This document shows positions 27,766 to 61,590 of a stretch of 64,000 bases of DNA, in pieces. This stretch comes from Ignavibacteria bacterium (GTDB lineage Bacteria > Bacteroidota > Ignavibacteria > Kapaibacteriales > Kapaibacteriaceae): positions 395,846 to 459,845 of the forward strand of contig JADJIQ010000001.1 in NCBI GenBank assembly GCA_016707005.1. Reading direction: 5' to 3'. The notes under the pieces were generated by a model. That model saw only the letters and a list, made by a program, of their open reading frames with translations, had not been told where the DNA came from and did no database searches. Numbering within the stretch: position 1 is the first letter of the stretch; each line of letters begins with the position of its first letter. The position numbers and the translations under genes were made by a program.

Positions 27766-29223
27766 TCAACGACTGAACGTTGCCGTCTTGGTTGAAGATT
27801 CGTTCTTGATAACGAGCATGTAAACGCCCGAGGCCAATGAAGCTGTTGGGATCAACACCTCTGTAGCGGAGGAAGCAACTTCCACTGAGTACATCGTTCT
27901 ACCCTTGATGTCCACAACAGAAACGGTCCATTGTGATGGGGAGGCTTCATCCAGGCGTATCCGGAGTTCGTTTCGTGCAGGGTTCGGTCCGTAGCTGAAG
28001 CCAGCTGAAACGGCAAGATCGGACCCTTCAACAGAGGTAGGATTATGAACGGCCGGATTCTCAAGAACAACGATGCGACCGCGTTTTGCATCTCCACTTT
28101 CGTACAGAGCTGCGTAAACTCTACCGTCTTGAGCTACAGTTACATCCATGATACGCTCGGTCTCTCCCTCAAGTGAGAGGTCGATCAACTGGCCTTCATC
28201 AAGCGTCATTACATCGTCCGATGGACGCGTAGCATCAATATTGGTGACCAAACCGCCTTCATTGAGGTTGGCGACAACCAATCCTCTTCCACGTAACGTG
28301 CCGATCAGCAAGGAGTTCGTCCAGTCCGGTATTGCATTTGAGCCATAATAGGCCATTCCACTTGGAGCCTGATTCATAGTAGCAAGGGGGCACTTCATCC
28401 CCTGAGGGGCACTTGTGCAATAGCCTGCTATGTTCAACCAACCGTAATTTGAACCGGCTTCGAGGCGATTAACCTCGTCAAAAGAAAGTGGGCCCATTTC
28501 CGTAGAGTAGATCACTCCGGCGTTGACAGAAGAGGTAGGCGGGACCTGTACAAGGCCAAGTGGGTTGCGATGCCCTGAAGTATAGATGTATGAACCTGCA
28601 CTTTTGGGGAACGTTTCAGAGAAGTGGGGATTTGACGGAACGGCTTCTCCTTCAAAAGTCATACGTATGACCTTGCCATTCACGTTCTCCATCTTGTTAG
28701 GGTCGAGATTGTCGTAGGACCCAACACTCACGAGAAGCGTATTGTCAGCCAGCGTTTCCAAGGTAAGGCCCTGCGACAAAGGGACGCCTCCTGTTGCAAA
28801 GATTCGCCGTGGTTCAATAAGCTTTTCACCATCGAAACGGTACCGCTCAACAACCAACGTGTCTCCTACCCGTGTTGACGTGACAAAGACTATAGGGGTG
28901 CCTGTGGTGAAGGATGGGTGCAGGGCAATGCCATAAAGACCACCGCGCACATTGGGATCACTCGGGCTCACTGAGATGTCAACCGTAAGAACTGTTGTGG
29001 TAACCCCTGTAATAGGGTGGACACGAAGCACGTTCCCACTCACCCGGTCTGTAAGCCAAAGGTAGCCATCGTTCCCTTGAGTCATGCTGGCAGGATACCC
29101 AACGTTGTCAGCCAACAATCGCAAATTCAATTCAGTACCCTTGGGCAGGGTGATTGTGCGCTGAGCATACGAAGAGACTGCTACGCAGATCAACGATATG
29201 AGAATAAGGATCGGACGAGCCAT
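27766..29223 (-). CDS. PQQ-dependent sugar (glucose/sorbosone) dehydrogenase-like beta-propeller with T9SS C-terminal sorting domain
   Basis: Signal peptide MARPILILISLICVAVSSYAQ, GSDH-like motif ...DEVNRLEAGSNYGW, and C-terminal CTD (NPARNELRIRL...ASGVYMLVIKNESSTKTATFSR). Confidence 0.55.
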   Translation of the reverse strand: MARPILILISLICVAVSSYAQRTITLPKGTELNLRLLADNVGYPASMTQGNDGYLWLTDRVSGNVLRVHPITGVTTTVLTVDISVSPSDPNVRGGLYGIALHPSFTTGTPIVFVTSTRVGDTLVVERYRFDGEKLIEPRRIFATGGVPLSQGLTLETLADNTLLVSVGSYDNLDPNKMENVNGKVIRMTFEGEAVPSNPHFSETFPKSAGSYIYTSGHRNPLGLVQVPPTSSVNAGVIYSTEMGPLSFDEVNRLEAGSNYGWLNIAGYCTSAPQGMKCPLATMNQAPSGMAYYGSNAIPDWTNSLLIGTLRGRGLVVANLNEGGLVTNIDATRPSDDVMTLDEGQLIDLSLEGETERIMDVTVAQDGRVYAALYESGDAKRGRIVVLENPAVHNPTSVEGSDLAVSAGFSYGPNPARNELRIRLDEASPSQWTVSVVDIKGRTMYSVEVASSATEVLIPTASLASGVYMLVIKNESSTKTATFSR

Positions 29224-29289
29224 GGTCACTCCCAAAGGGATGGACGAATACATGAGTGACAATCTACAAACAAAAATCCCTCCGTACAA

Positions 29290-41194: not shown

Positions 41195-42769
41195 ATGCCC
41201 TCCAGAACCACCGATTCAGAGCGGTTTACAGAACTCCTTTCCCGGGCCGAAGTGCACGAGGAAACGGCCATTCAGAGCCTTGCAGCAGCTGTGGCTCTGG
41301 CCAGAGATAGAATGAAGGGGGCTCAGCGCGATCGATCACTCTGGCGGACACATTGGATACGTGCTGCTCTCCGGCTTGCAGAACTACTGGAACGCAAAGA
41401 GTCGGCACGTGAAGCACTTGAGGTGTTGCAACCGCTCATCCATGAACTGGATGCCTGCGATGATGCCGACCTGGTTATGCGGACCAAACAAGAATTGGGT
41501 CGATATCTGATGATCCGGGGAGATCTCGATATTGCCATGGATCTTCTCCAACAGGCATTGCGAGATGCCGAGGTACTAAATAATACAGCTGTAGCCTCCG
41601 CTGCTTCGGGCAACATCGGCATGGTGTTCTTCAACCACGGCGAGTTCGATGACGCGCTGGTATGGTTCAATAAGACCGTTGTGTTGATGCGTCAACGCGG
41701 AGACAAGGCTCGGACCGCCCTTGCCCTGCGCAGTGTTGGAATGACGCATAGCAAGAAGAAAAGCTATTCCAAGGCATTGAAGTCCTACGCAGACGCATTG
41801 AAGGAACTCAACTCGAGTACCGAGGATAACATCGACTCGCGGATAGAAATCCAGATCCGGGAGTCCATTGGCGTTGATCAACTGAACCTTGCTGATGCAA
41901 CGCAGAAAGCCACGCACTATCAAGCGGCGATAGAGGCATTTTTAGAGTGCCTTGAGCTTGCCAGACGCAATGGGCTTGACGTTTCACGTGCGGTGGCATT
42001 ACGAAATCTCGGCCAGGTCTATGCAGAGACTGACTATGCCGAACATGACATCCACAAAGCCATCGCGTTGTTTGAAGAGGCACGGCAGATCATTGAACCA
42101 AAGTCGATCCATACACTTCACTATCAGATCAACAGAGAGCTTGCATTCGCCTATGAGGCGGTAGGAGACGCCGCCCAAGCACTTGAAGCCTACAAGCGCT
42201 ACCACTCTTCTGAAAGGGCCGTCATTGACCTCGACTCTGCCTCAAAGTTGCGCTCGATCGAAGAACGTCACCGTTTTGAACGATCGCAGGAAGAGTTGCG
42301 AAGAGAACAAGAGCGCTCACTTGAGCTCGAGGCTGAAGCCCGCAAGCGCACCGCGGAACTCTCTCACCTTACTCTAGCCATTGGTGAGACTAATGCTCGT
42401 TTGCGCGATCTCTCAAGCAGGATTCGGGTACAAGCACGTATCGCCGATCAACCAACAAAGCAACTCTTCCTAAATATCATTCAGGACATCGACGCTTCAC
42501 TCGGCACTGAGATCTTCTGGAGTGGAATCGAAGAACAACTATCCAACCTCCATGGTGAGTCGCTTCAGTACCTGTCTAAACATTTTCCTTCCCTTACCCC
42601 TACCGAACGCAAGGTCTGCGCCCTCATTCGGATAGACCTTTCCTCCAAGGAGATCGCCAGACTGCTCAATACGGAACCACGTTCAATAGAAAAGTACCGC
42701 CAACGCATCCGCAAGAAACTCGGCCTCACCGCATCCGACTCGCTGTCCACATTCATTTCGTCTTTATAG
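41195..42769 (+). CDS. TPR-repeat protein with C-terminal LuxR/GerE-type HTH (transcriptional regulator)
   Basis: Multiple TPR-like helices, a coiled-coil segment, and C-terminal LTPTERKVCALIRIDLSSKEIARLLNTEPRSIEKYRQRIRKKLGL, a LuxR-type HTH. Confidence 0.7.
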   Translation: MPSRTTDSERFTELLSRAEVHEETAIQSLAAAVALARDRMKGAQRDRSLWRTHWIRAALRLAELLERKESAREALEVLQPLIHELDACDDADLVMRTKQELGRYLMIRGDLDIAMDLLQQALRDAEVLNNTAVASAASGNIGMVFFNHGEFDDALVWFNKTVVLMRQRGDKARTALALRSVGMTHSKKKSYSKALKSYADALKELNSSTEDNIDSRIEIQIRESIGVDQLNLADATQKATHYQAAIEAFLECLELARRNGLDVSRAVALRNLGQVYAETDYAEHDIHKAIALFEEARQIIEPKSIHTLHYQINRELAFAYEAVGDAAQALEAYKRYHSSERAVIDLDSASKLRSIEERHRFERSQEELRREQERSLELEAEARKRTAELSHLTLAIGETNARLRDLSSRIRVQARIADQPTKQLFLNIIQDIDASLGTEIFWSGIEEQLSNLHGESLQYLSKHFPSLTPTERKVCALIRIDLSSKEIARLLNTEPRSIEKYRQRIRKKLGLTASDSLSTFISSL

Positions 42770-42843
42770 TCATACCGTCATACCGTCATACCGTCATTTA
42801 GTCAGTTAGTCACTTAGTCATTTCTTTGTCCGGCTTTTGTCCG
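42770..42843. repeat. tandem arrays (CGTCATAC)x3, (TYAGTCA)x3, (CTTTTGTCCGG)x2
   Basis: TCATACCGTCATACCGTCATACCGTCAtttaGTCAgttaGTCActtaGTCAtttCTTTGTCCGGCTTTTGTCCGG, directly after the regulator stop and upstream of the RHS gene. Confidence 0.8.
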
Positions 42844-42906
42844 GGTGCGCCGCATTACTGCAAGTGCAAGATTCGCCTCCGAAATCACAAACACCCGGAG
42901 GGGACG

Positions 42907-45900
42907 ATGAGTATCATTGGGAGAATTTGTTTGACACTCCTGCTTGCTACGTCAGTAATGGCCGGCACAGCACAAGCGGGAGAACTTGCAGTGCCATCGA
43001 AAAGATGGAGTTCGCAGGCTATCGTGGGGCGCCAGATGGTCCTGCGGTTTCTACTCACGAACAGGAATTCGGTATATGCACTTGGTCCGGTCCAGTGGAC
43101 CATCACTGTGCGGTATCTGCTCACACAGGCCATCATGTTCCAATTGGCCGGGTCAACCTTTGTTGGGGCGGGCCAGAGTTTAGAGGCAATCCCTGAACTA
43201 GCATGGACTCCAACAATGGAGGGGGCTCACCAGGTCACGATTGAGGCAAACAGCGAGGCGAACATCACTGGTCCACAAACGCTCATGGTCAATGAAACCG
43301 TGCTCGCTTCTACGGATTGCACCACTCGCCCGGCTCTCTCACCTGGTAACTTGCTTATTGCAACCTCTAGTGGAAGTATCACTTACACAGCTCCAAAAGG
43401 ATGTTGCTACAAGGTCATGCCGTTCATGAACTCCGAGACATTCTGGGACATGACGCCGGATACGGAGCAGACCATCTCAGACGGCCAGTCTGTAACATTC
43501 ACCATGACGGTCAAAGGCAATCAGCCGATGGCCACTGCTGTTGGCTTTGCGTGGCGAGAATGTGAAAAGGGAACGCCAAAGGGTCATGACTACATTGTTG
43601 TTTCACCGCGCATGCCCCCTTCAAACGGCGATACGGTGAACGGAACAGACGGACCACATATCTGGACGTCGACCTTTGGGGACCCTGTATCGCCCCGTAC
43701 CGGGACCTTTGTTTTGCGAGAAGATCCAGATCTAGATTTTGGAGTTGGTCCTTTGCGCTTTGAGCGTTTGTATGATGGAATGGGCATCACCTCTGGTTTT
43801 ATCTCAAACCTCGGCTTCAACTGGACTCATACCTACGATGCTTCTGTGGTCGTTACGCCCACGGAACACTTGGTCCAGCTGCCTGGGTTTGAAAGAGCGG
43901 CGTTCACAAAGGTCGGCAGTACCTACACACTGCGATCCATGAGTACCAATGTTCTCACACTACAAGACCATCAGGGCGGATGGCTCCTTACAGATGCCAC
44001 ACGTTTAACGCAGTACACGTTCAACGCCCAAGGGATGTTAACAAAGATCGACGATGGTGCTATGCCCGTGTATGTCGTATGGAATGGCTCGTCACTTGCT
44101 CGTGTAACAGATTCGCTTGGCCATGTGATCACGTTCACAACAAACGACCAAGGTCGCATTATCACGGCATCGAATGGAACGCTGACATGTACCTATGCGT
44201 ATTCAACCGCCCAGGAACTCGCTTCCGTAACGAGTAGCAATGGTTTTGCTACAACGTATGCGTATGGAGCAATACCCGGACAGATCACGTCCGTGGATCG
44301 CGGTGCAGGTGTTGTTGAAGTAAGCAACACGTATGATGCTAGCGGACGTATCACAGCACAGACCGATGCAGAAGGTCGTGCCTCCACGTACACCTACAGC
44401 AGCTCTTCATCACGCTACGTGGATGGAGCAGGTGTTGCGGAAGATCATACATGGAATATGCGTGGGCAGGTAACATCCATTGGCACGGGCACAACTGCGA
44501 TGCGTTTTACCTACAACGTCAACAATAGACCATCAATGATCATATCAGCAGGGGGCGATACAACACTCTTTACGTGGCACGAAAGCGGTAGACCAGCCAG
44601 TATCAGACATGGAGCTGGCGGAGTGGAGCGGTGGGAGTACCGTCAGCGACAATGGAACGGTGCCACTGTCTGGGACTGCACAACACATATCGATGAAGTA
44701 GGACGACGGATTACCTTCGAACGTGATGGCCGAGGCTGGTTAACCGGTATTGGTGGAGCTACTCGCCCCTTTACCTATACGCGAGACACACAAACCGGAC
44801 TCATCACTGAGGCTCGTTCTATGTCGGCAACTACCATGTACACGTACGATGCGAGCGGCCACATCACCTCAATGCGCAATGCACTTGGAGCCACAACAAC
44901 GTTTATCACCAATGGTAGAGGCGATGTCACAAAGATCTCGTACCCCGATACCTCCAGTGTTTCATTTGAGTACGATGCTCACGGGAAGGTCACAAAGTAC
45001 ACCGATGAGATGGGCGCTTCAACATCATGGACGTATGACCGCTGGGGGAGGGTATCGAGTGAAACCGGTCCCGGTAGTGTAACCACAACCTACGGGATAG
45101 ACCGCACGGGCCGGATGACGAGGATGAGCAGGGCCGGTCGTGATGCCGTCACGTTTGACTACGATGATGCCGGACGTCTTACTACAACACACGTTGGTTC
45201 GAGCATTGTTACGTCGCGCGAATATGACAATGCCGGATGGTTGTCTGCCATTGCCGATGCGGAGAGTCGCAAAGAACTCTATACAAACAACGCTGACGGA
45301 TACATTACGAAACATGTTGCCCGCGCCGGAGGAATGACGGAATTCCAACACGATGGACGTGGACTGATCACTGATGTTACCACTCCAACGGGCGGTGCTG
45401 AAGCGTTTCGATTTGATGCATCGGGCGATGTGATTGACTATCGTGATGCTTCTCAACGTTTCTCGGCGTTCACATATGGTAGAACAGGCCAGATATCTCG
45501 CTGGCAGCATGGTCCGGTCAACACCGTGATGACATATGATACGCTGGGCAGGATCACCTCATGCAGAGATACGGATGGTGGTACTTGGAACTATGCATAT
45601 AACGCAATGGACTTGGTCACCAAACGAACAGATCCATCGGGTTCTTCAACAACATATGATTACGACCTCCGAGGCAGAGTTCGTTCGATCACCGATGCTC
45701 AGGGCGTGGTAACTCTGCTTCGACGCGATAAGCGGGGGAACATCATTGAACAACGTAGGGCTTCAGACCTGCGTCACACATACACATATGATGTGGCTGG
45801 ACGCCCAACGTCCACTACGCGGTCAACGAGCGCGTATGATGCAACTGGCACGCTCACGCAGACCAATGGTGTTGCGATAACATGGAACACAAATGGTACT

Positions 45901-47154
45901 ATAGCCAGCATCGGCGTAGCACCCGGAAAGAACATCACGTACACCTATGATGCAATGTTCCGTGTTAAGACCATATCAGATTGGACTGGGGCAACGATCA
46001 CACTTCAGCGCGATGCAAACGGGTCGATCATCGAAACACAACGCTCCGGAGCATTGACCACGCGCTATACGCGCGATGCGTCAGGAGCCTTGACGATGAT
46101 CGAAGAGAGTCCAACAGTTTCGATGACGATCGCTCGTTTTGCAGATGGTAGGATCTCCTCAATTCAATCGCAAGGATATCTCGATGGACCACCGTTGGAT
46201 GACGATCGTACACTGACGTATTCCTCGGCAAATACACTCATGTCGCCGATGCATCCTTCAGTAGGTCAGCTCATAACGGATGGATACGATCGAGTTGTTG
46301 GTGTCCGCAGCGGGGCCGACTCCACGATTGTTGTTCACAACGACGCACTAGGTGGTCTGACACAGTCGGTTCTGGTGAACGGACAATTGTGGGTAGTACT
46401 CTCAACTGCTCAAGACGGATTGTTTGGAATGGTGAATGTTGCCAACGGTGAGCATCGATATTTCCACTATGATGCCAGCGGCAATGTTGTCGCAGTGAGT
46501 GATGATAACGGTACCATTGTTTCGCGATTTGCCTATGGTGCGTATGGAGAGCCCCTTGCATCGGATGGTGAGACACAGATCCCGTTTCAGTTTGGAGGTC
46601 AGCGTGGCACGTGGACGCCGGGAGCTTCACAATACGTGATGGGTACACGTGTTTACGATGCCACAACAGGAAGATTCACCACTGAAGACCCTGTGGAACA
46701 GCTAGACCCACGTGCATTCAACGCTTATGCCTATGCATGGGGCGACCCAGTCAACGCTCATGATGCATCGGGTGCAACGCCCGAAGCAAACCTGCCGGCA
46801 CCAGACTGGCTCGAGGAGTCACGACGCAACAGTGATCGTGCAATAGCAAAGGCTGCAGCGATCAATGACATCATCCAGGCCGATGAGGCACAACGCGAGT
46901 TGGATCGTCAGGCAGAGCGTCGGGCGCGTGAAGTTCGTACTCGGACACGTCCAAGCGCAACACCTAAGCCATCAAAGCCAACAAAAACCAACAACCCACC
47001 CCCTCCAACTCCTGCACCGGTACCCACACCACCACCGGCACCTGCGCCCGCACCTGTTCCTGGTGGGAAACGAGCTCCAGCTGGCGGATCCAATCGTGGC
47101 AGCTACCTGCCCGATTGGGCGCGAGACATCCTCGAATATTTCATCGTTTTTTAA
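42907..47154 (+). CDS. YD-repeat / RHS-family giant secreted protein (polymorphic-toxin-like)
   Basis: Signal peptide MSIIGRICLTLLLATSVMAGTAQA. More than 25 YD repeats (e.g. YTYDASGRITAQTDAEGR). RHS core ending ...NAYAYAWGDPVNAHDASG (DPxG-type motif). The C-terminal ~125 aa are Pro-rich low complexity. Start chosen at the internal ATG at 42907. Confidence 0.85.
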   Translation: MSIIGRICLTLLLATSVMAGTAQAGELAVPSKRWSSQAIVGRQMVLRFLLTNRNSVYALGPVQWTITVRYLLTQAIMFQLAGSTFVGAGQSLEAIPELAWTPTMEGAHQVTIEANSEANITGPQTLMVNETVLASTDCTTRPALSPGNLLIATSSGSITYTAPKGCCYKVMPFMNSETFWDMTPDTEQTISDGQSVTFTMTVKGNQPMATAVGFAWRECEKGTPKGHDYIVVSPRMPPSNGDTVNGTDGPHIWTSTFGDPVSPRTGTFVLREDPDLDFGVGPLRFERLYDGMGITSGFISNLGFNWTHTYDASVVVTPTEHLVQLPGFERAAFTKVGSTYTLRSMSTNVLTLQDHQGGWLLTDATRLTQYTFNAQGMLTKIDDGAMPVYVVWNGSSLARVTDSLGHVITFTTNDQGRIITASNGTLTCTYAYSTAQELASVTSSNGFATTYAYGAIPGQITSVDRGAGVVEVSNTYDASGRITAQTDAEGRASTYTYSSSSSRYVDGAGVAEDHTWNMRGQVTSIGTGTTAMRFTYNVNNRPSMIISAGGDTTLFTWHESGRPASIRHGAGGVERWEYRQRQWNGATVWDCTTHIDEVGRRITFERDGRGWLTGIGGATRPFTYTRDTQTGLITEARSMSATTMYTYDASGHITSMRNALGATTTFITNGRGDVTKISYPDTSSVSFEYDAHGKVTKYTDEMGASTSWTYDRWGRVSSETGPGSVTTTYGIDRTGRMTRMSRAGRDAVTFDYDDAGRLTTTHVGSSIVTSREYDNAGWLSAIADAESRKELYTNNADGYITKHVARAGGMTEFQHDGRGLITDVTTPTGGAEAFRFDASGDVIDYRDASQRFSAFTYGRTGQISRWQHGPVNTVMTYDTLGRITSCRDTDGGTWNYAYNAMDLVTKRTDPSGSSTTYDYDLRGRVRSITDAQGVVTLLRRDKRGNIIEQRRASDLRHTYTYDVAGRPTSTTRSTSAYDATGTLTQTNGVAITWNTNGTIASIGVAPGKNITYTYDAMFRVKTISDWTGATITLQRDANGSIIETQRSGALTTRYTRDASGALTMIEESPTVSMTIARFADGRISSIQSQGYLDGPPLDDDRTLTYSSANTLMSPMHPSVGQLITDGYDRVVGVRSGADSTIVVHNDALGGLTQSVLVNGQLWVVLSTAQDGLFGMVNVANGEHRYFHYDASGNVVAVSDDNGTIVSRFAYGAYGEPLASDGETQIPFQFGGQRGTWTPGASQYVMGTRVYDATTGRFTTEDPVEQLDPRAFNAYAYAWGDPVNAHDASGATPEANLPAPDWLEESRRNSDRAIAKAAAINDIIQADEAQRELDRQAERRAREVRTRTRPSATPKPSKPTKTNNPPPPTPAPVPTPPPAPAPAPVPGGKRAPAGGSNRGSYLPDWARDILEYFIVF

Positions 47155-47163
47155 GGGGCAACC

Positions 47164-47619
47164 ATGAAAACCTTCATCATTCTCATCGCAGTATTCGCCA
47201 CAACACTAAGTGTTTGGTCTCAGACCTACACCTACGATGCTGCTGGCCGCATTGCCAGTGTTCGATATGCTGGTGGCAAACAAACAACCTATACCTATGA
47301 CGGTAGAGGCAACATCACCAAGCGTACTACTGCAACGGTGAACAGTGTTAGTGATGAATACGAGGTGGCATCAAAAATCACACTGGCGCCCAATCCCACA
47401 TCATCAACGATCATGGTACAGCTCGGCAACGTCGTCAGCGGCAACATTCCTCGACTCATCATTACTGATGTTGCCGGGCGCACGGTTGCCGAGCAGGCCA
47501 TGGCACGAGGTCAGTCATCGTCTACGCTGGATGTTCAACACCTATCATCCGGAATGTACATTGTGACATTCGTTGATGGTATCAATGAACAGAGGAGCCC
47601 CTTGCTTATCATGCGATAG
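47164..47619 (+). CDS. small secreted YD-repeat protein with T9SS C-terminal sorting domain
   Basis: Signal peptide MKTFIILIAVFATTLSVWSQ, two YD repeats (TYTYDAAGRIASVRYAGGKQTTYTYDGRGNITKRT), and a CTD (LAPNPTSSTIMVQL...SSGMYIVTFVDG...LLIMR). Lies 9 nt after the RHS stop. Confidence 0.7.
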   Translation: MKTFIILIAVFATTLSVWSQTYTYDAAGRIASVRYAGGKQTTYTYDGRGNITKRTTATVNSVSDEYEVASKITLAPNPTSSTIMVQLGNVVSGNIPRLIITDVAGRTVAEQAMARGQSSSTLDVQHLSSGMYIVTFVDGINEQRSPLLIMR

Positions 47620-54066: not shown

Positions 54067-55908
54067 TCACAATCGCTCCAACCAGTAGGTTGTCATCATA
54101 CCCTTACCCTTGACCTCTATAGTTCCGCGCTCCGTAACCCCGAAACCCTGCAGCTCTTCTGCAAACGCTTGGCTGATGTGAATACGTCCGGGTTCGCTGT
54201 GTTGCTCCATGCGTGCTGCAATATTGACAGCGTCACCCCAGATGTCGTACATGGGTCGCGTAGCGCCGATAACGCCGGCAACTACGGTGCCGATGTGCAT
54301 ACCAATGCGCACGCGAACTCCATAGGTTCCATCGGTTATTGCCTTCATCATGTCCATAGCACAATGGGCTGCTCGATGCGCAGGTTGTGATACCATGTCT
54401 GGCAAATTGGCCACAGCCATGTAGGCATCGCCGATGGTTTTGATCCGAACGAGGCCGTGATGTTCGATGATCGTATCGAATTGCGTGAAGATTCGCTCGA
54501 TGAAGTCCAACACTTCCTTGGGTTCCATGTTTTCCGAGATCGTGGTAAAGCCAACGAGGTCGGCAAAGAGAATCGCGACGTCAGTGTGGACATCTGCAAT
54601 GCGGCGTTCGCCGGAGAGAATTCTTTCTGCAACCGTACCAGGCATCACTGAATGAAGAAGATCTCGCTCGCGTTGAGCGGTGCGACGTTCTTCTTCTCGC
54701 TCACGTTCTACTGTGAACAGTGCTAGTCGTTGTTGAGCTGTCGTATTCGTGACCGATGTCTCCAATTGAGTGCGCTCGAGCAAGCACTGGTAAGCACGGC
54801 TGGACGCTTGCGTGGCGGCATAGGCAACGTGGAGTTCTGCCAGCGAACGAAGCAGAGCCGACACATCTGCGCGTTGACGTGCCGCATCAGCAATTGGCTC
54901 TAGAATGTCGATCGCTTTCTGGTGATCACCTTCGCACATCAACAACCGAGCCTCTTCGATGACATGAGTTATCCGCTGCGGTTCGTTTGAAGCCATAGCA
55001 AGAGCATCTTCTGCTCTCTGAAGCCACAACCGTGCCTGTTCGATGTTACCCAACACCCGATGTGCTGCGGACAGCCCACGTCGTGCGCCGGTTGCCATTG
55101 ACCATTTGCTCTTGTCTGTGCTCAAGCGTTCAGCTACCAGCAGTTCGTGAATGGCCTGCGTCGCATCGTTGTCCTCAAGGTGCAATAGGCCAATGTTCAG
55201 CGCAGCATACGTAGCAAATCTCTCTGCATCGGCGCCGGTGTCGATCGTGCGTACCTGTTCGAAGTATGTGCGTGCCTTCTCGCGATTACCCGTTTCGCCA
55301 TACAGCACACCAAGATTTAACATGGCGATCGCTAGCGCTATAGGATTATCCAACGTCGTGAACGTTTCATAGGCCCTGAACTGCATGCGTACCGCATCGG
55401 CTAGGAGCCCCTTTCGACTATAGATCGTAGCTAACTCGGTAAGGGCATTGCCCAAGGCTGCAGGGTAGGGAAGTGCGCCAAGAAGAGCAACGGCGTGTTC
55501 ACCGTGTGTTTGGGCATCGTCATATCGACCTTGTTGCGTTGCGCAGAGTGCCAGTGTGCGAAGTGCGCGTGCCTGATAGCCAACATCCGTCATGGTATCT
55601 ACATCGAGGTCTTGCATCAAATCGAGTGCCTCGTCTACCTCCGTGGATTCCGCCAAGAACTGCGTCCAACCCGTCACCATTCGGTAGTGTAGATCGTACG
55701 GTCTTTTGGAAGGGGGCAGTGCAGTGAACGAAGCAAACGCTGACCGTGCACCTTGCAGATTCCGTTGAGAACACTGCAGTTCCAAATTGAGCCATAGTTG
55801 CAACCACCATGGCTCAGGGTCGGCGGGCATTTCCGCTACCAGTCTATCCAGCATAGGCTTGCGGATACCGAGGATAGCATCGTCGATCTGTTGGAGCATA
55901 GTTGACAT
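54067..55908 (-). CDS. TPR-repeat class III adenylate/guanylate cyclase
   Basis: N-terminal ~400 aa of TPR-like repeats. C-terminal CYCc domain (VAILFADLVGFTTISE...IKTIGDAYMAV...GIHIGTVVAGVIG...YDIWGDAVNIAARME). Confidence 0.8.
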   Translation of the reverse strand: MSTMLQQIDDAILGIRKPMLDRLVAEMPADPEPWWLQLWLNLELQCSQRNLQGARSAFASFTALPPSKRPYDLHYRMVTGWTQFLAESTEVDEALDLMQDLDVDTMTDVGYQARALRTLALCATQQGRYDDAQTHGEHAVALLGALPYPAALGNALTELATIYSRKGLLADAVRMQFRAYETFTTLDNPIALAIAMLNLGVLYGETGNREKARTYFEQVRTIDTGADAERFATYAALNIGLLHLEDNDATQAIHELLVAERLSTDKSKWSMATGARRGLSAAHRVLGNIEQARLWLQRAEDALAMASNEPQRITHVIEEARLLMCEGDHQKAIDILEPIADAARQRADVSALLRSLAELHVAYAATQASSRAYQCLLERTQLETSVTNTTAQQRLALFTVEREREEERRTAQRERDLLHSVMPGTVAERILSGERRIADVHTDVAILFADLVGFTTISENMEPKEVLDFIERIFTQFDTIIEHHGLVRIKTIGDAYMAVANLPDMVSQPAHRAAHCAMDMMKAITDGTYGVRVRIGMHIGTVVAGVIGATRPMYDIWGDAVNIAARMEQHSEPGRIHISQAFAEELQGFGVTERGTIEVKGKGMMTTYWLERL

Positions 55909-59919: not shown

Positions 59920-61590
59920 ATGTCATACTCCGTAACTCTTATGGCGCATGAGTCTACTCTCTATGCCGGTACTCATCGTGTTTGCTCATCAACAAATCAG
60001 GGGAATGATTGGACAGATAGTGGAAGTCTCCTCTCAAGAACTAGAGTTGTATCCTTTGCGAAAATTGCAACGCATCTGTTTGCGGCAACAAATGGGGTGG
60101 GGGTGATACATTCGCCCGACGATGGCATTACATGGGATACGGTAGACAATGGCTTACCTGATACTACAGTCAACACTCTCCTCGCAAGTGGTAATGCTCT
60201 GTTTGCGGGTACACGGTCAAGGGGAGTGTATGTCTCTTCAAACTATGGGGCGAGCTGGAGTCCTTCCAATAATGGTTTGACAGACACCACAGTTGCGTCG
60301 TTGATCGAGCATGGCAAGTATCTTTTTGCCTCAACGCCTAACCAGGGAATCCTCCGCTCATCTGATCAAGGTGCTTCATGGACAGAAGCCAATATTGGAT
60401 TTTCAGGCACATCTTTAGTTCGCTCCATACTGAGCAGGGGAGAATATCTTTTTGCTGGAACCGACAAGGGGGGTGCATACCGACATAATGGGGTGAATTG
60501 GCGTTCAACAAAGGTTGGTCTTCAAACTGAGTATGCCAGCTCTTTGGCGGTTCAAGACTCAGTCTTGTTTGTTGGAGTCTTTCGCGTGCAGGCTGCGAAT
60601 CAACGAGGTGGCGTATTCCGTTCCTCCGACGATGGTGATTCGTGGCGTCCATACAACACTGGCCCTAGCAGTGATGTTTGGAGCCTAGCCGTCAACGATG
60701 CAAATGTGTTCGCCGGAACGCAGATTGGTGTGTATCGTTCCACTGATTATGGAGATAATTGGAACGCTGCCAATGGCCCAATTAAAGGCGGAATGGGGAT
60801 AGAAATGAGATATCAGTACATCTTATCTCTCGCTTCTATAGGGACAACGATATTTGCGGGGGGAAATAGAGATGTCTTTGTATCTACAAACTACGGATCG
60901 ACTTGGAGTTTTGTGAGATTCAATGTACCCACGGACAGAATTAGGTCTCTGGCTGCTATTGGAACAAATATGTTTGCTACAACCGTTAACGGGGGAGTGT
61001 TTCGTATCTCAGGAAGCGGTGATACCTACACCGCGGAATCGGCTGGTCTATCTGGGAAGACCGTAAACTCTCTTGCAGTTAGTGGCACGAATCTCTTTGC
61101 AGGAACGGTTGATGGGGGAGTCTTTCTGACAACTGACATGGGTAAAACGTGGACGTCTATTAATGATGGCCTCCCTTATTCGTCGGTTACTGCATTAGCA
61201 ATACATAAAGGAAATCTATATGCGGGTGCAGCATCAATCGTCGAGTTCTGGCATGGCGCGGGTGTCTTTGTTCGCCCCCTTTCTGAGATTGTAACAACGG
61301 TAAATGAAACATCCGCAAGCGAGTTGACTCCATTGCTTCAATCTCAGAACTTTCCGAATCCCTTCACTAATGTGACAGACATTGAATTCACGTTGAGAGA
61401 ATCTGCACACGTTACCATTACGATCTACAATGCACTCGGTGCAATTGTGCAGACAATAGCGTCCAAGGAATTTCCGGCAGGTCACAACACTGCAACATGG
61501 GATGCATCCTCCCATGAAGTCGGTCTGTATTTCTATCGCATAATTGTTGGGTCGCAAAGTGAGACCAAGAGTCTCTTGATCATGCGTTAG
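59920..61590 (+). CDS. BNR/Asp-box repeat beta-propeller protein, C-terminal part with T9SS sorting domain
   Basis: At least 10 further SxDxGxxW repeats. C-terminal CTD FPNPFTNVTDIEFTL...GLYFYRIIVGSQSETKSLLIMR. Continuous with the 59436 ORF if one A is removed from the A5 run at 59909-59913. Confidence 0.75.
   Translation: MSYSVTLMAHESTLYAGTHRVCSSTNQGNDWTDSGSLLSRTRVVSFAKIATHLFAATNGVGVIHSPDDGITWDTVDNGLPDTTVNTLLASGNALFAGTRSRGVYVSSNYGASWSPSNNGLTDTTVASLIEHGKYLFASTPNQGILRSSDQGASWTEANIGFSGTSLVRSILSRGEYLFAGTDKGGAYRHNGVNWRSTKVGLQTEYASSLAVQDSVLFVGVFRVQAANQRGGVFRSSDDGDSWRPYNTGPSSDVWSLAVNDANVFAGTQIGVYRSTDYGDNWNAANGPIKGGMGIEMRYQYILSLASIGTTIFAGGNRDVFVSTNYGSTWSFVRFNVPTDRIRSLAAIGTNMFATTVNGGVFRISGSGDTYTAESAGLSGKTVNSLAVSGTNLFAGTVDGGVFLTTDMGKTWTSINDGLPYSSVTALAIHKGNLYAGAASIVEFWHGAGVFVRPLSEIVTTVNETSASELTPLLQSQNFPNPFTNVTDIEFTLRESAHVTITIYNALGAIVQTIASKEFPAGHNTATWDASSHEVGLYFYRIIVGSQSETKSLLIMR

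Follow-up and report, generated by a model that had tools for sequence, protein, structure and literature searches.

A candidate surface RHS system of Ignavibacteria: a Sec-exported shell with a conserved non-toxin tail and a two-repeat partner carrying a type IX secretion domain

Introduction

RHS cocoons are understood almost wholly as capsules of polymorphic toxins, which are handed to a type VI secretion system (T6SS), to the Tc injection machine or to the Gram-positive cell wall. How the Sec-exported RHS proteins of diderm bacteria reach the cell surface and stay there is, to our knowledge, essentially unexplained so far. Here, we describe a locus in a 64-kb stretch of contig JADJIQ010000001.1 (the window, by which the whole stretch is meant) that holds a gene for an RHS protein of 1415 amino acids (aa) and, just downstream, a small gene for two YD repeats (2xYD) joined to a C-terminal domain (CTD) of a type IX secretion system (T9SS). 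The segment that follows the RHS-associated core of the large protein is conserved and is not a polymorphic toxin, and the reading weighed below is that the two genes form a surface RHS system.

The T6SS-associated and other bacterial Rhs cocoon effectors of known structure (RhsA, 7q97; Tse15, 8uxt and 8uy4; RhsP, 8h8a; the Salmonella and Advenella proteins of the 8qj entries) have the same YD-repeat shell fold as the protein described here, and the DUF6531 plug, the RHS-associated core with two Asp residues and a C-terminal segment in the cargo position are common to both. Unlike these effectors, which have a PAAR/VgrG-linked prePAAR, the present protein starts with a Sec signal peptide and an Ig-like N-terminus, and it differs from them further in having no toxin fold and no immunity gene, a conserved tail and a secreted 2xYD partner. 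In TcB-TcC and YenB-YenC, two-chain cocoons with solved structures (TcdB2-TccC3, YenB-YenC), a single RHS shell is built from two RHS-repeat chains of adjacent genes, which makes them the model for the joining of a 2xYD protein to a shell through continuation of its beta-sheet; the present shell is also structurally similar to the ABC toxin cocoons 6h6g and 4igl in Foldseek. The second chain is here only two repeats and a sorting domain and not a half-shell as in the ABC toxin BC component, and its joining to the shell is suggested by analogy. Membership in that group was rejected, as Pfam detected no SpvB/TcB region or beta-propeller and there is no TcA-like neighbour.

The likeness to teneurins and bacterial teneurin-like proteins (TLPs) lies in the core, whose best contiguous match is teneurin-3. 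For many bacterial TLPs, Sec export and anchoring at the surface have been predicted, and their CTDs are small (~15 kDa), hypervariable and accompanied by immunity genes (PMC13018210). The Bacillus TLP that has been solved is cleaved and encapsulates a hydrophobic, membrane-damaging, non-enzymatic CTD of ~90 aa; the phyla listed as TLP-positive include no FCB-group phylum, and Bacteroidota, Ignavibacteria and T9SS are unmentioned (PMC13018210). Unlike the TLP CTDs, the tail described here is conserved, has no transmembrane (TM) segment and comes without an immunity gene. The protein is not a TLP since it lacks an FN plug and an NHL domain: neither was matched in Pfam, the N-terminal 230 aa were modelled as Ig-like and a protein of 1415 aa has no room for a propeller. 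The TLP structures are PDB 9ifo and 9pt5.

A T9SS-cargo gene beside an Rhs gene is also found in Porphyromonas gingivalis, where PGN_1817 adjoins PGN_1818, its largest Rhs gene; the adjacency was proposed as a mechanistic link and left unexplained, and the P. gingivalis Rhs C-termini are highly variable (PMC6775972). We liken PGN_1817 to the present partner by position alone. Unlike ordinary T9SS cargo, the partner has a passenger of only a ~55-aa 2xYD module, and the RHS protein itself is without a CTD. This adjacency remark was all that we found in the searchable literature on a 2xYD adaptor family or on a link between RHS proteins and T9SS, which is absence of evidence only.

Results

The 1415-aa protein has both the shell and the RHS-associated core that define the RHS/YD-repeat family and belongs to that family. 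The shell matches RHS_repeat (PF05593) at 2.4e-57 and TIGR01643 at 5e-37, with DUF6531 placed by Pfam at aa 258-316, and the core model TIGR03696 (Rhs_assc_core) matches aa 1210-1289 with 53 bits against a cutoff of 32.5 (3.7e-14, 1-75 of 76 profile positions). In an AlphaFold2 (AF2) model of aa 216-1415 the shell has about 90 beta-strands in beta-hairpins, with pLDDT mostly 75-90. When this model was submitted to Foldseek, solved Rhs cocoons came out on top (best 8qja, E 5e-55; also 8qjd, 8uxt and 7q97), and teneurin, TLP and Tc toxin structures ranked under the Rhs cores. A sequence-only reading of the same DNA, made without database searches, had described a giant RHS open reading frame (ORF) with a Sec signal peptide and an RHS core, which these results bear out. 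Its count of more than 25 YD repeats holds for structural hairpins and not for literal YD dipeptides, which number 17.

The core ends in ...HDASGA, so that the terminal motif is DASGA, with Pro to Ala and Leu to Ala changes relative to the usual DPxGL. Across 78 aligned homologues Pro is the usual residue behind the second Asp, with A, V, S or L in about a dozen of them, and the position after Gly is highly variable, non-Leu residues included, so that DASGA falls inside the variation of the family. Both putative catalytic residues, D1261 and D1286, are strictly kept, also in orthologues at about 33% identity. On both counts the core is, judged by its sequence, not degenerate; a degenerate core that would leave a simple adhesin, an outcome named in the sequence-only reading, is rejected on the same grounds. 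In the TLP structure 9ifo the last modelled residue, L2144, is the P1 residue of the autoproteolytic site and aligns with A1290. The predicted scissile bond therefore lies between A1290 and T1291, and cleavage there would release a tail of 125 aa. The core carries the signature DPRAFNAYAYAWGDP (DPRAFNAYAYA, teneurin-like; generalised N[PA][YF][QA][YF]A..[DN]P), and its best contiguous match in the PDB is the teneurin-3 core (DPAPFNLY versus DPRAFNAY, E 7e-9).

The tail after HDASGA is exactly as the sequence-only reading had quoted it, a helix, a Pro-rich stretch and an end, and it gave no match in Pfam, NCBIfam or the PDB. When a tail profile was run exhaustively with HMMER over 1.84 billion representatives, the tail's own cluster was all that came up, the other matches being marginal and confined to low-complexity columns. 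A word-indexed search with the 126-aa tail also returned no real match, yet the database holds the identical tail of the orthologue P0002; this negative is uninformative because that tail was missed, and the exhaustive HMMER search was used instead. Low-complexity queries can give false negatives in word-indexed protein searches. AF2 modelled the tail as a single long helix followed by disorder and a short terminal helix, with low pLDDT throughout, and more than 70% of it is charged helix or low-complexity sequence predicted to be disordered. The earlier judgement that no recognisable toxin follows the core is thus sustained by the searches and the model alike. A toxin in a frameshift or alternative frame was likewise ruled out, as no other frame is open across the tail. 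No TM segment was predicted in the tail, where the maximum 19-aa Kyte-Doolittle value (KD19) is 0.13, and 0.76 in the orthologue P0004. Pfam and NCBIfam detected no T9SS CTD in the RHS protein, and no NCBIfam CTERM model, covering PEP-CTERM, LPXTG, GlyGly-CTERM and similar sorting signals, matched its C-terminus, which reads ...EYFIVF and is without a basic cluster.

The nearest database protein comes from an Ignavibacteria metagenome-assembled genome (MAG). A scan of genome contigs with the full RHS protein returned 0 loci, and a rescan with an alignment of the N-terminal region returned 4. The orthologues are P0002 at 98% identity, P0003 (on L001) and the protein of L006 at 73%, and P0004 (on L002) and the proteins of L008 and L018 at about 33-45%. 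The tail of P0002 is identical to that in the window, and the layout of helix, Pro- or Pro/Gly-rich stretch and aromatic end is kept in all the others. In P0004, L008 and L018 the tail comprises about 85 helical and 70-90 P/G-rich residues. That of P0004 ends in ...SPSEIWDYYFGD, and that of L018, which represents a third subclade, has the layout helix, Pro-rich stretch and 'YLSDDLRDLLEWFTVL' with the end motif EEYLSDDLRDLLEWFTVLRSKR.

Conservation is unevenly distributed along the protein, and the tail is on the conserved side. Between the window and P0003 the shell is 70%, the core 85% and the whole tail 84% identical, and within the tail identity rises from 77% in the helix through 85% in the Pro-rich stretch to 97% in the last 30 aa. 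The nonsynonymous distances (dN, Nei-Gojobori) of this pair follow suit, falling from 0.21 in the shell to 0.096 across the tail and 0.030 over the last 30 aa. Synonymous sites are saturated in all regions (proportion of synonymous differences, pS, 0.65-0.74). The ratio dN/dS comes to 0.054 in the tail as a whole and to 0.020 in its last 30 aa. An independent pair, L002 versus L008, shows the same trend with 47% identity in the shell, 55% in the tail and 62% at the end. From these region identities, the dN pattern and its repeat in the second pair we conclude that the tail is translated and functional and that strong purifying selection acts on it, which is the reverse of what a swappable toxin tip would show. 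In neither of the two independent pairs is the tail less conserved than the shell, and the third subclade keeps its architecture. The frame of a polymorphic toxin, against which the sequence-only reading had measured the tail, therefore fails, and the tail is no variable tip but a clade-specific, intrinsically disordered, non-enzymatic segment.

Upstream of the shell, the signal peptide was judged by reading sequence features and is the least conserved part of the protein between orthologues, as expected of signal peptides. The following region (aa 25-257) is 83% identical to P0003, above the conservation of the shell. AF2 modelled it as all-beta with low confidence (pLDDT 49), the Foldseek matches of this model were generic Ig-like folds only (MSP, ASH, transglutaminase beta-barrel), and Pfam gave only a weak Big_3_5 match.

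The earlier remark that no obvious small immunity gene follows was right as to immunity, but it overlooked a gene of 151 aa that starts 9 nt downstream. Its product has a signal peptide (aa 1-20), two YD repeats (aa ~21-60) with a degenerate third, and a T9SS type-A CTD (aa ~75-151), and it matches RHS_repeat at 1.7e-13, Por_Secre_tail (PF18962) at 4.2e-11 and TIGR04183 at 9.3e-10. With an N-terminal Sec signal and a C-terminal Por_Secre_tail the partner is a T9SS type-A cargo protein. It adjoins the RHS gene in L001, L002, L006, L008 and L018 as well, and its YD part has a dN/dS of 0.056. The suggestion that a payload might be supplied in trans finds no support here, for what the neighbouring gene supplies is a sorting or anchoring domain on a 2xYD module.

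Two further observations concern the partner. Its pS against the orthologue in L001 (14252-14707) is 0.39, well below the value of about 0.69 for the adjacent RHS gene, possibly from recent recombination, from constraint at the codon or RNA level, or from its overlap with the 3' end of a convergent methyltransferase gene (47609-47619). In every partner of the Ignavibacteria clade surveyed (those of the window, L001, L002, L008 and L018) a Gln stands directly before the first YD repeat (..WSQ/TYTYD, ..AQTYEYD, ..AQTFIYD), so that the mature N-terminus would start at or beside this Gln. The position is reminiscent of the Bacteroidetes 'Q-rule', which concerns substrates of signal peptidase I. 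Three distant 'homologues' of the partner, P0125-P0127, were discarded as merely RHS fragments.

The combination of an RHS gene with a small 2xYD gene recurs outside this clade. Three unrelated RHS genes with the core signature, those of P0008, P0024 and P0015, adjoin a gene for a signal peptide, exactly two YD repeats and a further module X, which is DUF4214 beside P0008 and Soli_cterm beside P0015; the RHS protein P0024 is from a Verrucomicrobiota MAG. P0015 itself ends 11 aa past the core and hence has no cargo. No adjacent gene of this kind was present at P0026, P0012 (core without the signature), P0055 and P0100 (missed by the core search). A metagenome scan with the core alignment gave 80 loci, and partners were counted by script in 48 distinct loci. 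A signal peptide plus 2xYD ORF adjoins the RHS gene in 16 of the 48, and in 12 of the 25 that have a complete RHS gene and adequate flanks, mostly immediately downstream and on the same strand. ORFs that fit the pattern are enriched near RHS genes (16/863) relative to positions further off in the same loci (2/755; Fisher p = 0.003). The X modules comprise the T9SS CTD, three SLH domains, dockerin repeats, CFI-box-CTERM, Soli_cterm, DUF4214 and Ig-like domains, to which a GlyGly-CTERM-like membrane anchor and a PVC-type beta domain may be added by eye only, without confirmation by a model. In the partners the 2xYD head is thus the constant element, and what varies is the module behind it, which is of an envelope-anchoring or secreted-protein type.

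The RHS tails of the subfamily are, in contrast to this head, almost all mutually unrelated. Ten of them were scanned with Pfam, and eight were without a family, one has a secretin domain and one has a weak PLA2-like match. Because the head is constant and the tails differ, the head is expected to bind something equally constant in the RHS protein, which would be the shell or core rather than the tail. A shared end motif with the tail of P0024 (VWDSYF) was considered and was not significant by hhalign (E 0.05, probability 1%), and the same was the case for P0008.

Some members of the subfamily deserve separate mention. The RHS gene of L015 (1419-4679) ends 11 aa after DPTGL, giving an 'empty' shell, and still has a signal peptide plus 2xYD partner, and that of L019 (1-3552) has a secretin domain as its tail (PF00263, 7e-24). 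P0067 and P0070 have a DPWGL core motif followed by ~700 aa (DUF7619, Fn3-like) with a T9SS type-A CTD at the end. Such a segment is far too large for encapsulation, and some FCB-group post-core regions must therefore lie outside the shell.

At the locus in the window (Table 1) a TPR-LuxR regulator gene directly precedes the RHS gene, with an array of short words between them; both had been noticed in the sequence-only reading and are real. In L001 (77% identity), L002 (36%) and L018 (46%) the regulator also directly precedes the RHS gene. The array in the window has an 8-nt unit in ~7.5 copies. Arrays at the same place in L001 (9818-9915, 12.2 copies) and L002 (9798-9857, a 9-nt unit in 6.7 copies) differ in unit and copy number, and the intergenic region of L018 has no tandem array. 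The only long block identical across the intergenic regions of the window, L001 and the distant L002 is a box after the array (CTTTTGTCCGGGTGCGC). The array could be an iterated binding site of the regulator or a promoter element of variable copy number.

The order of regulator, RHS gene and small YD/T9SS gene is kept in L001, L002, L008 and L018; in L006, whose contig does not extend far enough upstream to include a regulator, the RHS and small genes are kept. The cassette of L001 and L002 lies within a shared housekeeping neighbourhood (nuoD, SpoU methylase, M61 peptidase, alaS), and in the window the partner gene is followed by the convergent methyltransferase gene and then alaS. Neither further RHS or CT fragments nor the orphan rhs-CT/immunity cassettes that the sequence-only reading had proposed to look for were found in the 64 kb, and no immunity candidate was found at the locus in the window, L001 or L002. 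The locus is vertically inherited and chromosomal, and not a mobile conflict island.

Elsewhere in the window a glucose/sorbosone dehydrogenase and a Sortilin/BNR-like protein, both ordinary T9SS cargo, carry a Por_Secre_tail in cis, from which the organism appears to use T9SS. The host is an Ignavibacteria-like, T9SS-bearing bacterium. The syntenic contigs with orthologous loci (L005-L008) are assigned to MAGs of Ignavibacteria, of 'Candidatus Didemnitutus' (Verrucomicrobiota) and of 'Hyphomicrobiales'; as L001, L002, L006 and L008, the contigs looked at closely, all encode T9SS-CTD proteins and L001 and L002 have the gene order of the window, the last two labels are probably the result of mis-binning or mislabelling. 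Besides the TPR-LuxR regulator the window encodes a second TPR signalling protein, in which TPR repeats are joined to an adenylate/guanylate cyclase catalytic domain.

Table 1. Positions of the features described, counted from the first letter of the window
Feature	Position	Strand	Basis or remark
Cis-CTD T9SS cargo, glucose/sorbosone dehydrogenase	27766-29289	-	Por_Secre_tail
TPR + LuxR/GerE-type helix-turn-helix regulator, first gene of the three-gene cassette	41195-42769	+	TPR_12 8.6e-18, GerE 1e-7 (Pfam)
8-nt tandem array, GTCATACC x3.6 then GTCATTTA x3.9	42769-42823	.	Tandem Repeats Finder; between regulator and RHS gene
Conserved box CTTTTGTCCGGGTGCGCCGC, candidate promoter or operator	42834-42853	+	just past array
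RHS ORF, 1415 aa	ATG 42907, stop 47152-47154	+	intact reading frame
RHS signal peptide, aa 1-24, MSIIGRICLTLLLATSVMAGTAQA followed by GE	42907-42978	+	basic n-region, hydrophobic core, AQA/G cleavage motif
N-terminal region, aa 25-257, probably two Ig-like beta-sandwich domains	42979-43677	+	AF2, Foldseek
DUF6531 plug and YD-repeat shell, aa 258-1209	43678-46533	+	Pfam PF20148, PF05593, PF25023
RHS-associated core, aa 1210-1290	46534-46776	+	TIGR03696
Putative catalytic Asp D1261 and D1286	46687-46689 and 46762-46764	+	invariant in subfamily alignment
Post-core tail, aa 1291-1415 (125 aa)	46777-47151	+	no family match
Charged ER/K-type helix of tail, aa ~1301-1344	46807-46938	+	AF2
Pro-rich stretch of tail, aa ~1351-1385	46957-47061	+	disordered in AF2
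Aromatic end motif of tail, GSYLPDWARDILEYFIVF, aa 1398-1415 (18 aa)	47098-47151	+	conserved
Partner gene, 151 aa, 9 nt past RHS stop, same frame	47164-47619	+	Pfam, NCBIfam
TPR-repeat protein with adenylate/guanylate cyclase catalytic domain	54067-55908	-	
Cis-CTD T9SS cargo, Sortilin/BNR-like protein	59920-61590	+	Por_Secre_tail

Discussion

The reading that we put first, with evenly balanced confidence, is that of a two-gene surface RHS system, in which a Sec-exported shell with a conserved non-toxin tail works together with a 2xYD/T9SS anchoring adaptor and is maintained as part of a conserved three-gene unit. By analogy with TcB-TcC and YenB-YenC, which build one cocoon, the 2xYD head may dock onto the RHS beta-sheet shell. 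Type-A CTDs are established as T9SS sorting domains that are removed as the cargo is fixed to the surface, and the CTD of the partner would route the complex through T9SS or, after its removal, leave the head anchored at the cell surface. The Ig-like N-terminal domains may contact a target. As both Asp of the autoprotease are retained, cleavage after A1290 is most likely, and the tail would then stay within the shell as a conserved cargo of non-enzymatic nature. Among the roles that can be envisaged for the tail we accordingly rank encapsulated non-enzymatic cargo first, an external stalk next and a peptide effector against non-kin last.

Several points weigh against this reading. The docking of adaptor and shell is proposed by analogy, and the passage of a folded shell of ~150 kDa through T9SS is a step that has to be supposed. 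The two substitutions in DPxGL leave cleavage as a prediction only, an ER/K helix combined with polyproline would be more usual in a spacer or a stalk than in a cargo that is encapsulated, and P0067 and P0070 illustrate that post-core regions are not always encapsulated. The census is weakened by a partner detector that is our own heuristic, and about half of the complete subfamily loci are without a detected adjacent partner. Finally, the YD segment of the partner is 48% identical to RHS aa 645-696, a mid-shell repeat and its best match, so that the head could be a duplicated fragment, and its nearness to a generic YD consensus may partly explain its constancy.

A wider version of the same idea, possible but on balance improbable, would see in these loci a 'split RHS' design not described before: the 2xYD mini-protein would complete or clamp the cocoon and plug it into whichever anchoring system the lineage has (T9SS, S-layer/SLH, cohesin-dockerin or CTERM), and in the Ignavibacteria-like clade the toxin cargo would have been replaced by the conserved, disordered tail of helix, polyproline and aromatic end.

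The tail could alternatively remain uncleaved and serve as an external stalk or tether with a teneurin-like topology, in which helix and polyproline form a spacer of 20-35 nm and the end motif binds an envelope component or a target, holding the cocoon as a string holds a balloon. The composition of the tail is indeed spacer-like, with a 44-residue charged helix and 45 Pro-rich residues, both parts being larger in P0004, L008 and L018, and conservation is highest at the extreme C-terminal motif. The core is also closest in sequence to the teneurin cores, which are non-cleaving, and P0067 and P0070 demonstrate FCB-group RHS proteins with large post-core regions that end in a T9SS CTD. The strict conservation of both catalytic Asp, down to orthologues at about 33% identity, is difficult to reconcile with an uncleaved tail; for the solved RHS cocoons 8h8a, 8h8b and 8uxt the depositors report autoproteolysis or name the protein a cleavage mutant, and cleavage occurs in the TLP as well. 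A stalk would moreover have neither a TM segment nor a known C-terminal sorting signal to hold it, and the end motif is unlikely to be the ligand of the adaptor since tails differ across the subfamily and the head is constant. Taken together, we regard a stalk as doubtful, though conceivable.

A small non-enzymatic effector, in which the cleaved tail acts as a peptide-like toxin or host-interaction factor, membrane-active or translocated by a short motif, appears unlikely to us. With non-kin as the target no immunity gene would be needed and the sequence would stay conserved, and the tail does sit in the canonical cargo position behind an intact Asp dyad. The precedent is the solved TLP with its ~90-aa hydrophobic membrane-damaging CTD (PMC13018210). 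The high diversity of tails within the subfamily resembles that of toxin systems, and the secretin domain and the weak PLA2-like match each occur in one tail. The tail has, however, no hydrophobic segment long enough for a membrane helix, either here or in P0004 by the KD19 maxima given above, and most of it is charged helix or Pro/Gly sequence of low complexity for which disorder is predicted. No candidate immunity gene was found, and conservation at a syntenic chromosomal locus over deep divergence is atypical of conflict systems.

That the RHS protein acts alone and is exported otherwise, for instance by the type II secretion system (T2SS) or in outer-membrane vesicles, next to a small YD/T9SS gene that is only an unrelated neighbour or an orphan piece of an RHS gene, is distinctly improbable. 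The resemblance of the small gene's YD segment to the mid-shell repeat would fit a partial duplication, and the loci without a detectable partner speak for this reading as well. A stray fragment would not be expected to combine a signal peptide of its own with a complete sorting domain, to have a YD part under purifying selection and to stay beside the RHS gene in 6 of 6 orthologous loci, and the same 2xYD architecture with other anchors recurs, enriched, beside RHS genes in unrelated lineages. That the RHS gene has decayed, its original toxin lost and the tail a meaningless read-through, is very improbable and effectively refuted by the selection analysis, since the low-complexity composition, the lack of homologues outside the clade and the related P0015 with its 11 aa past the core stand against low dN/dS in the tail and its last 30 aa at saturated synonymous sites, a tail architecture kept in three subclades and an intact reading frame with no alternative frame open.

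The recurrent neighbour gene, with its constant 2xYD head and lineage-specific anchor, provides a concrete and testable model for the surface display of Sec-exported RHS proteins, and the 2xYD/T9SS partner connects RHS proteins with type IX secretion. From the tail, which is conserved and non-enzymatic, it follows that toxins are not the only possible occupants of the cargo position, and this bears on the evolution of teneurin-type adhesion proteins from toxins. If the wider, split-RHS version were true, what was a weapon would have become a permanent organelle of the cell surface that serves adhesion or recognition between cells, and these bacteria would offer a parallel to the toxin-to-receptor transition behind the teneurins.

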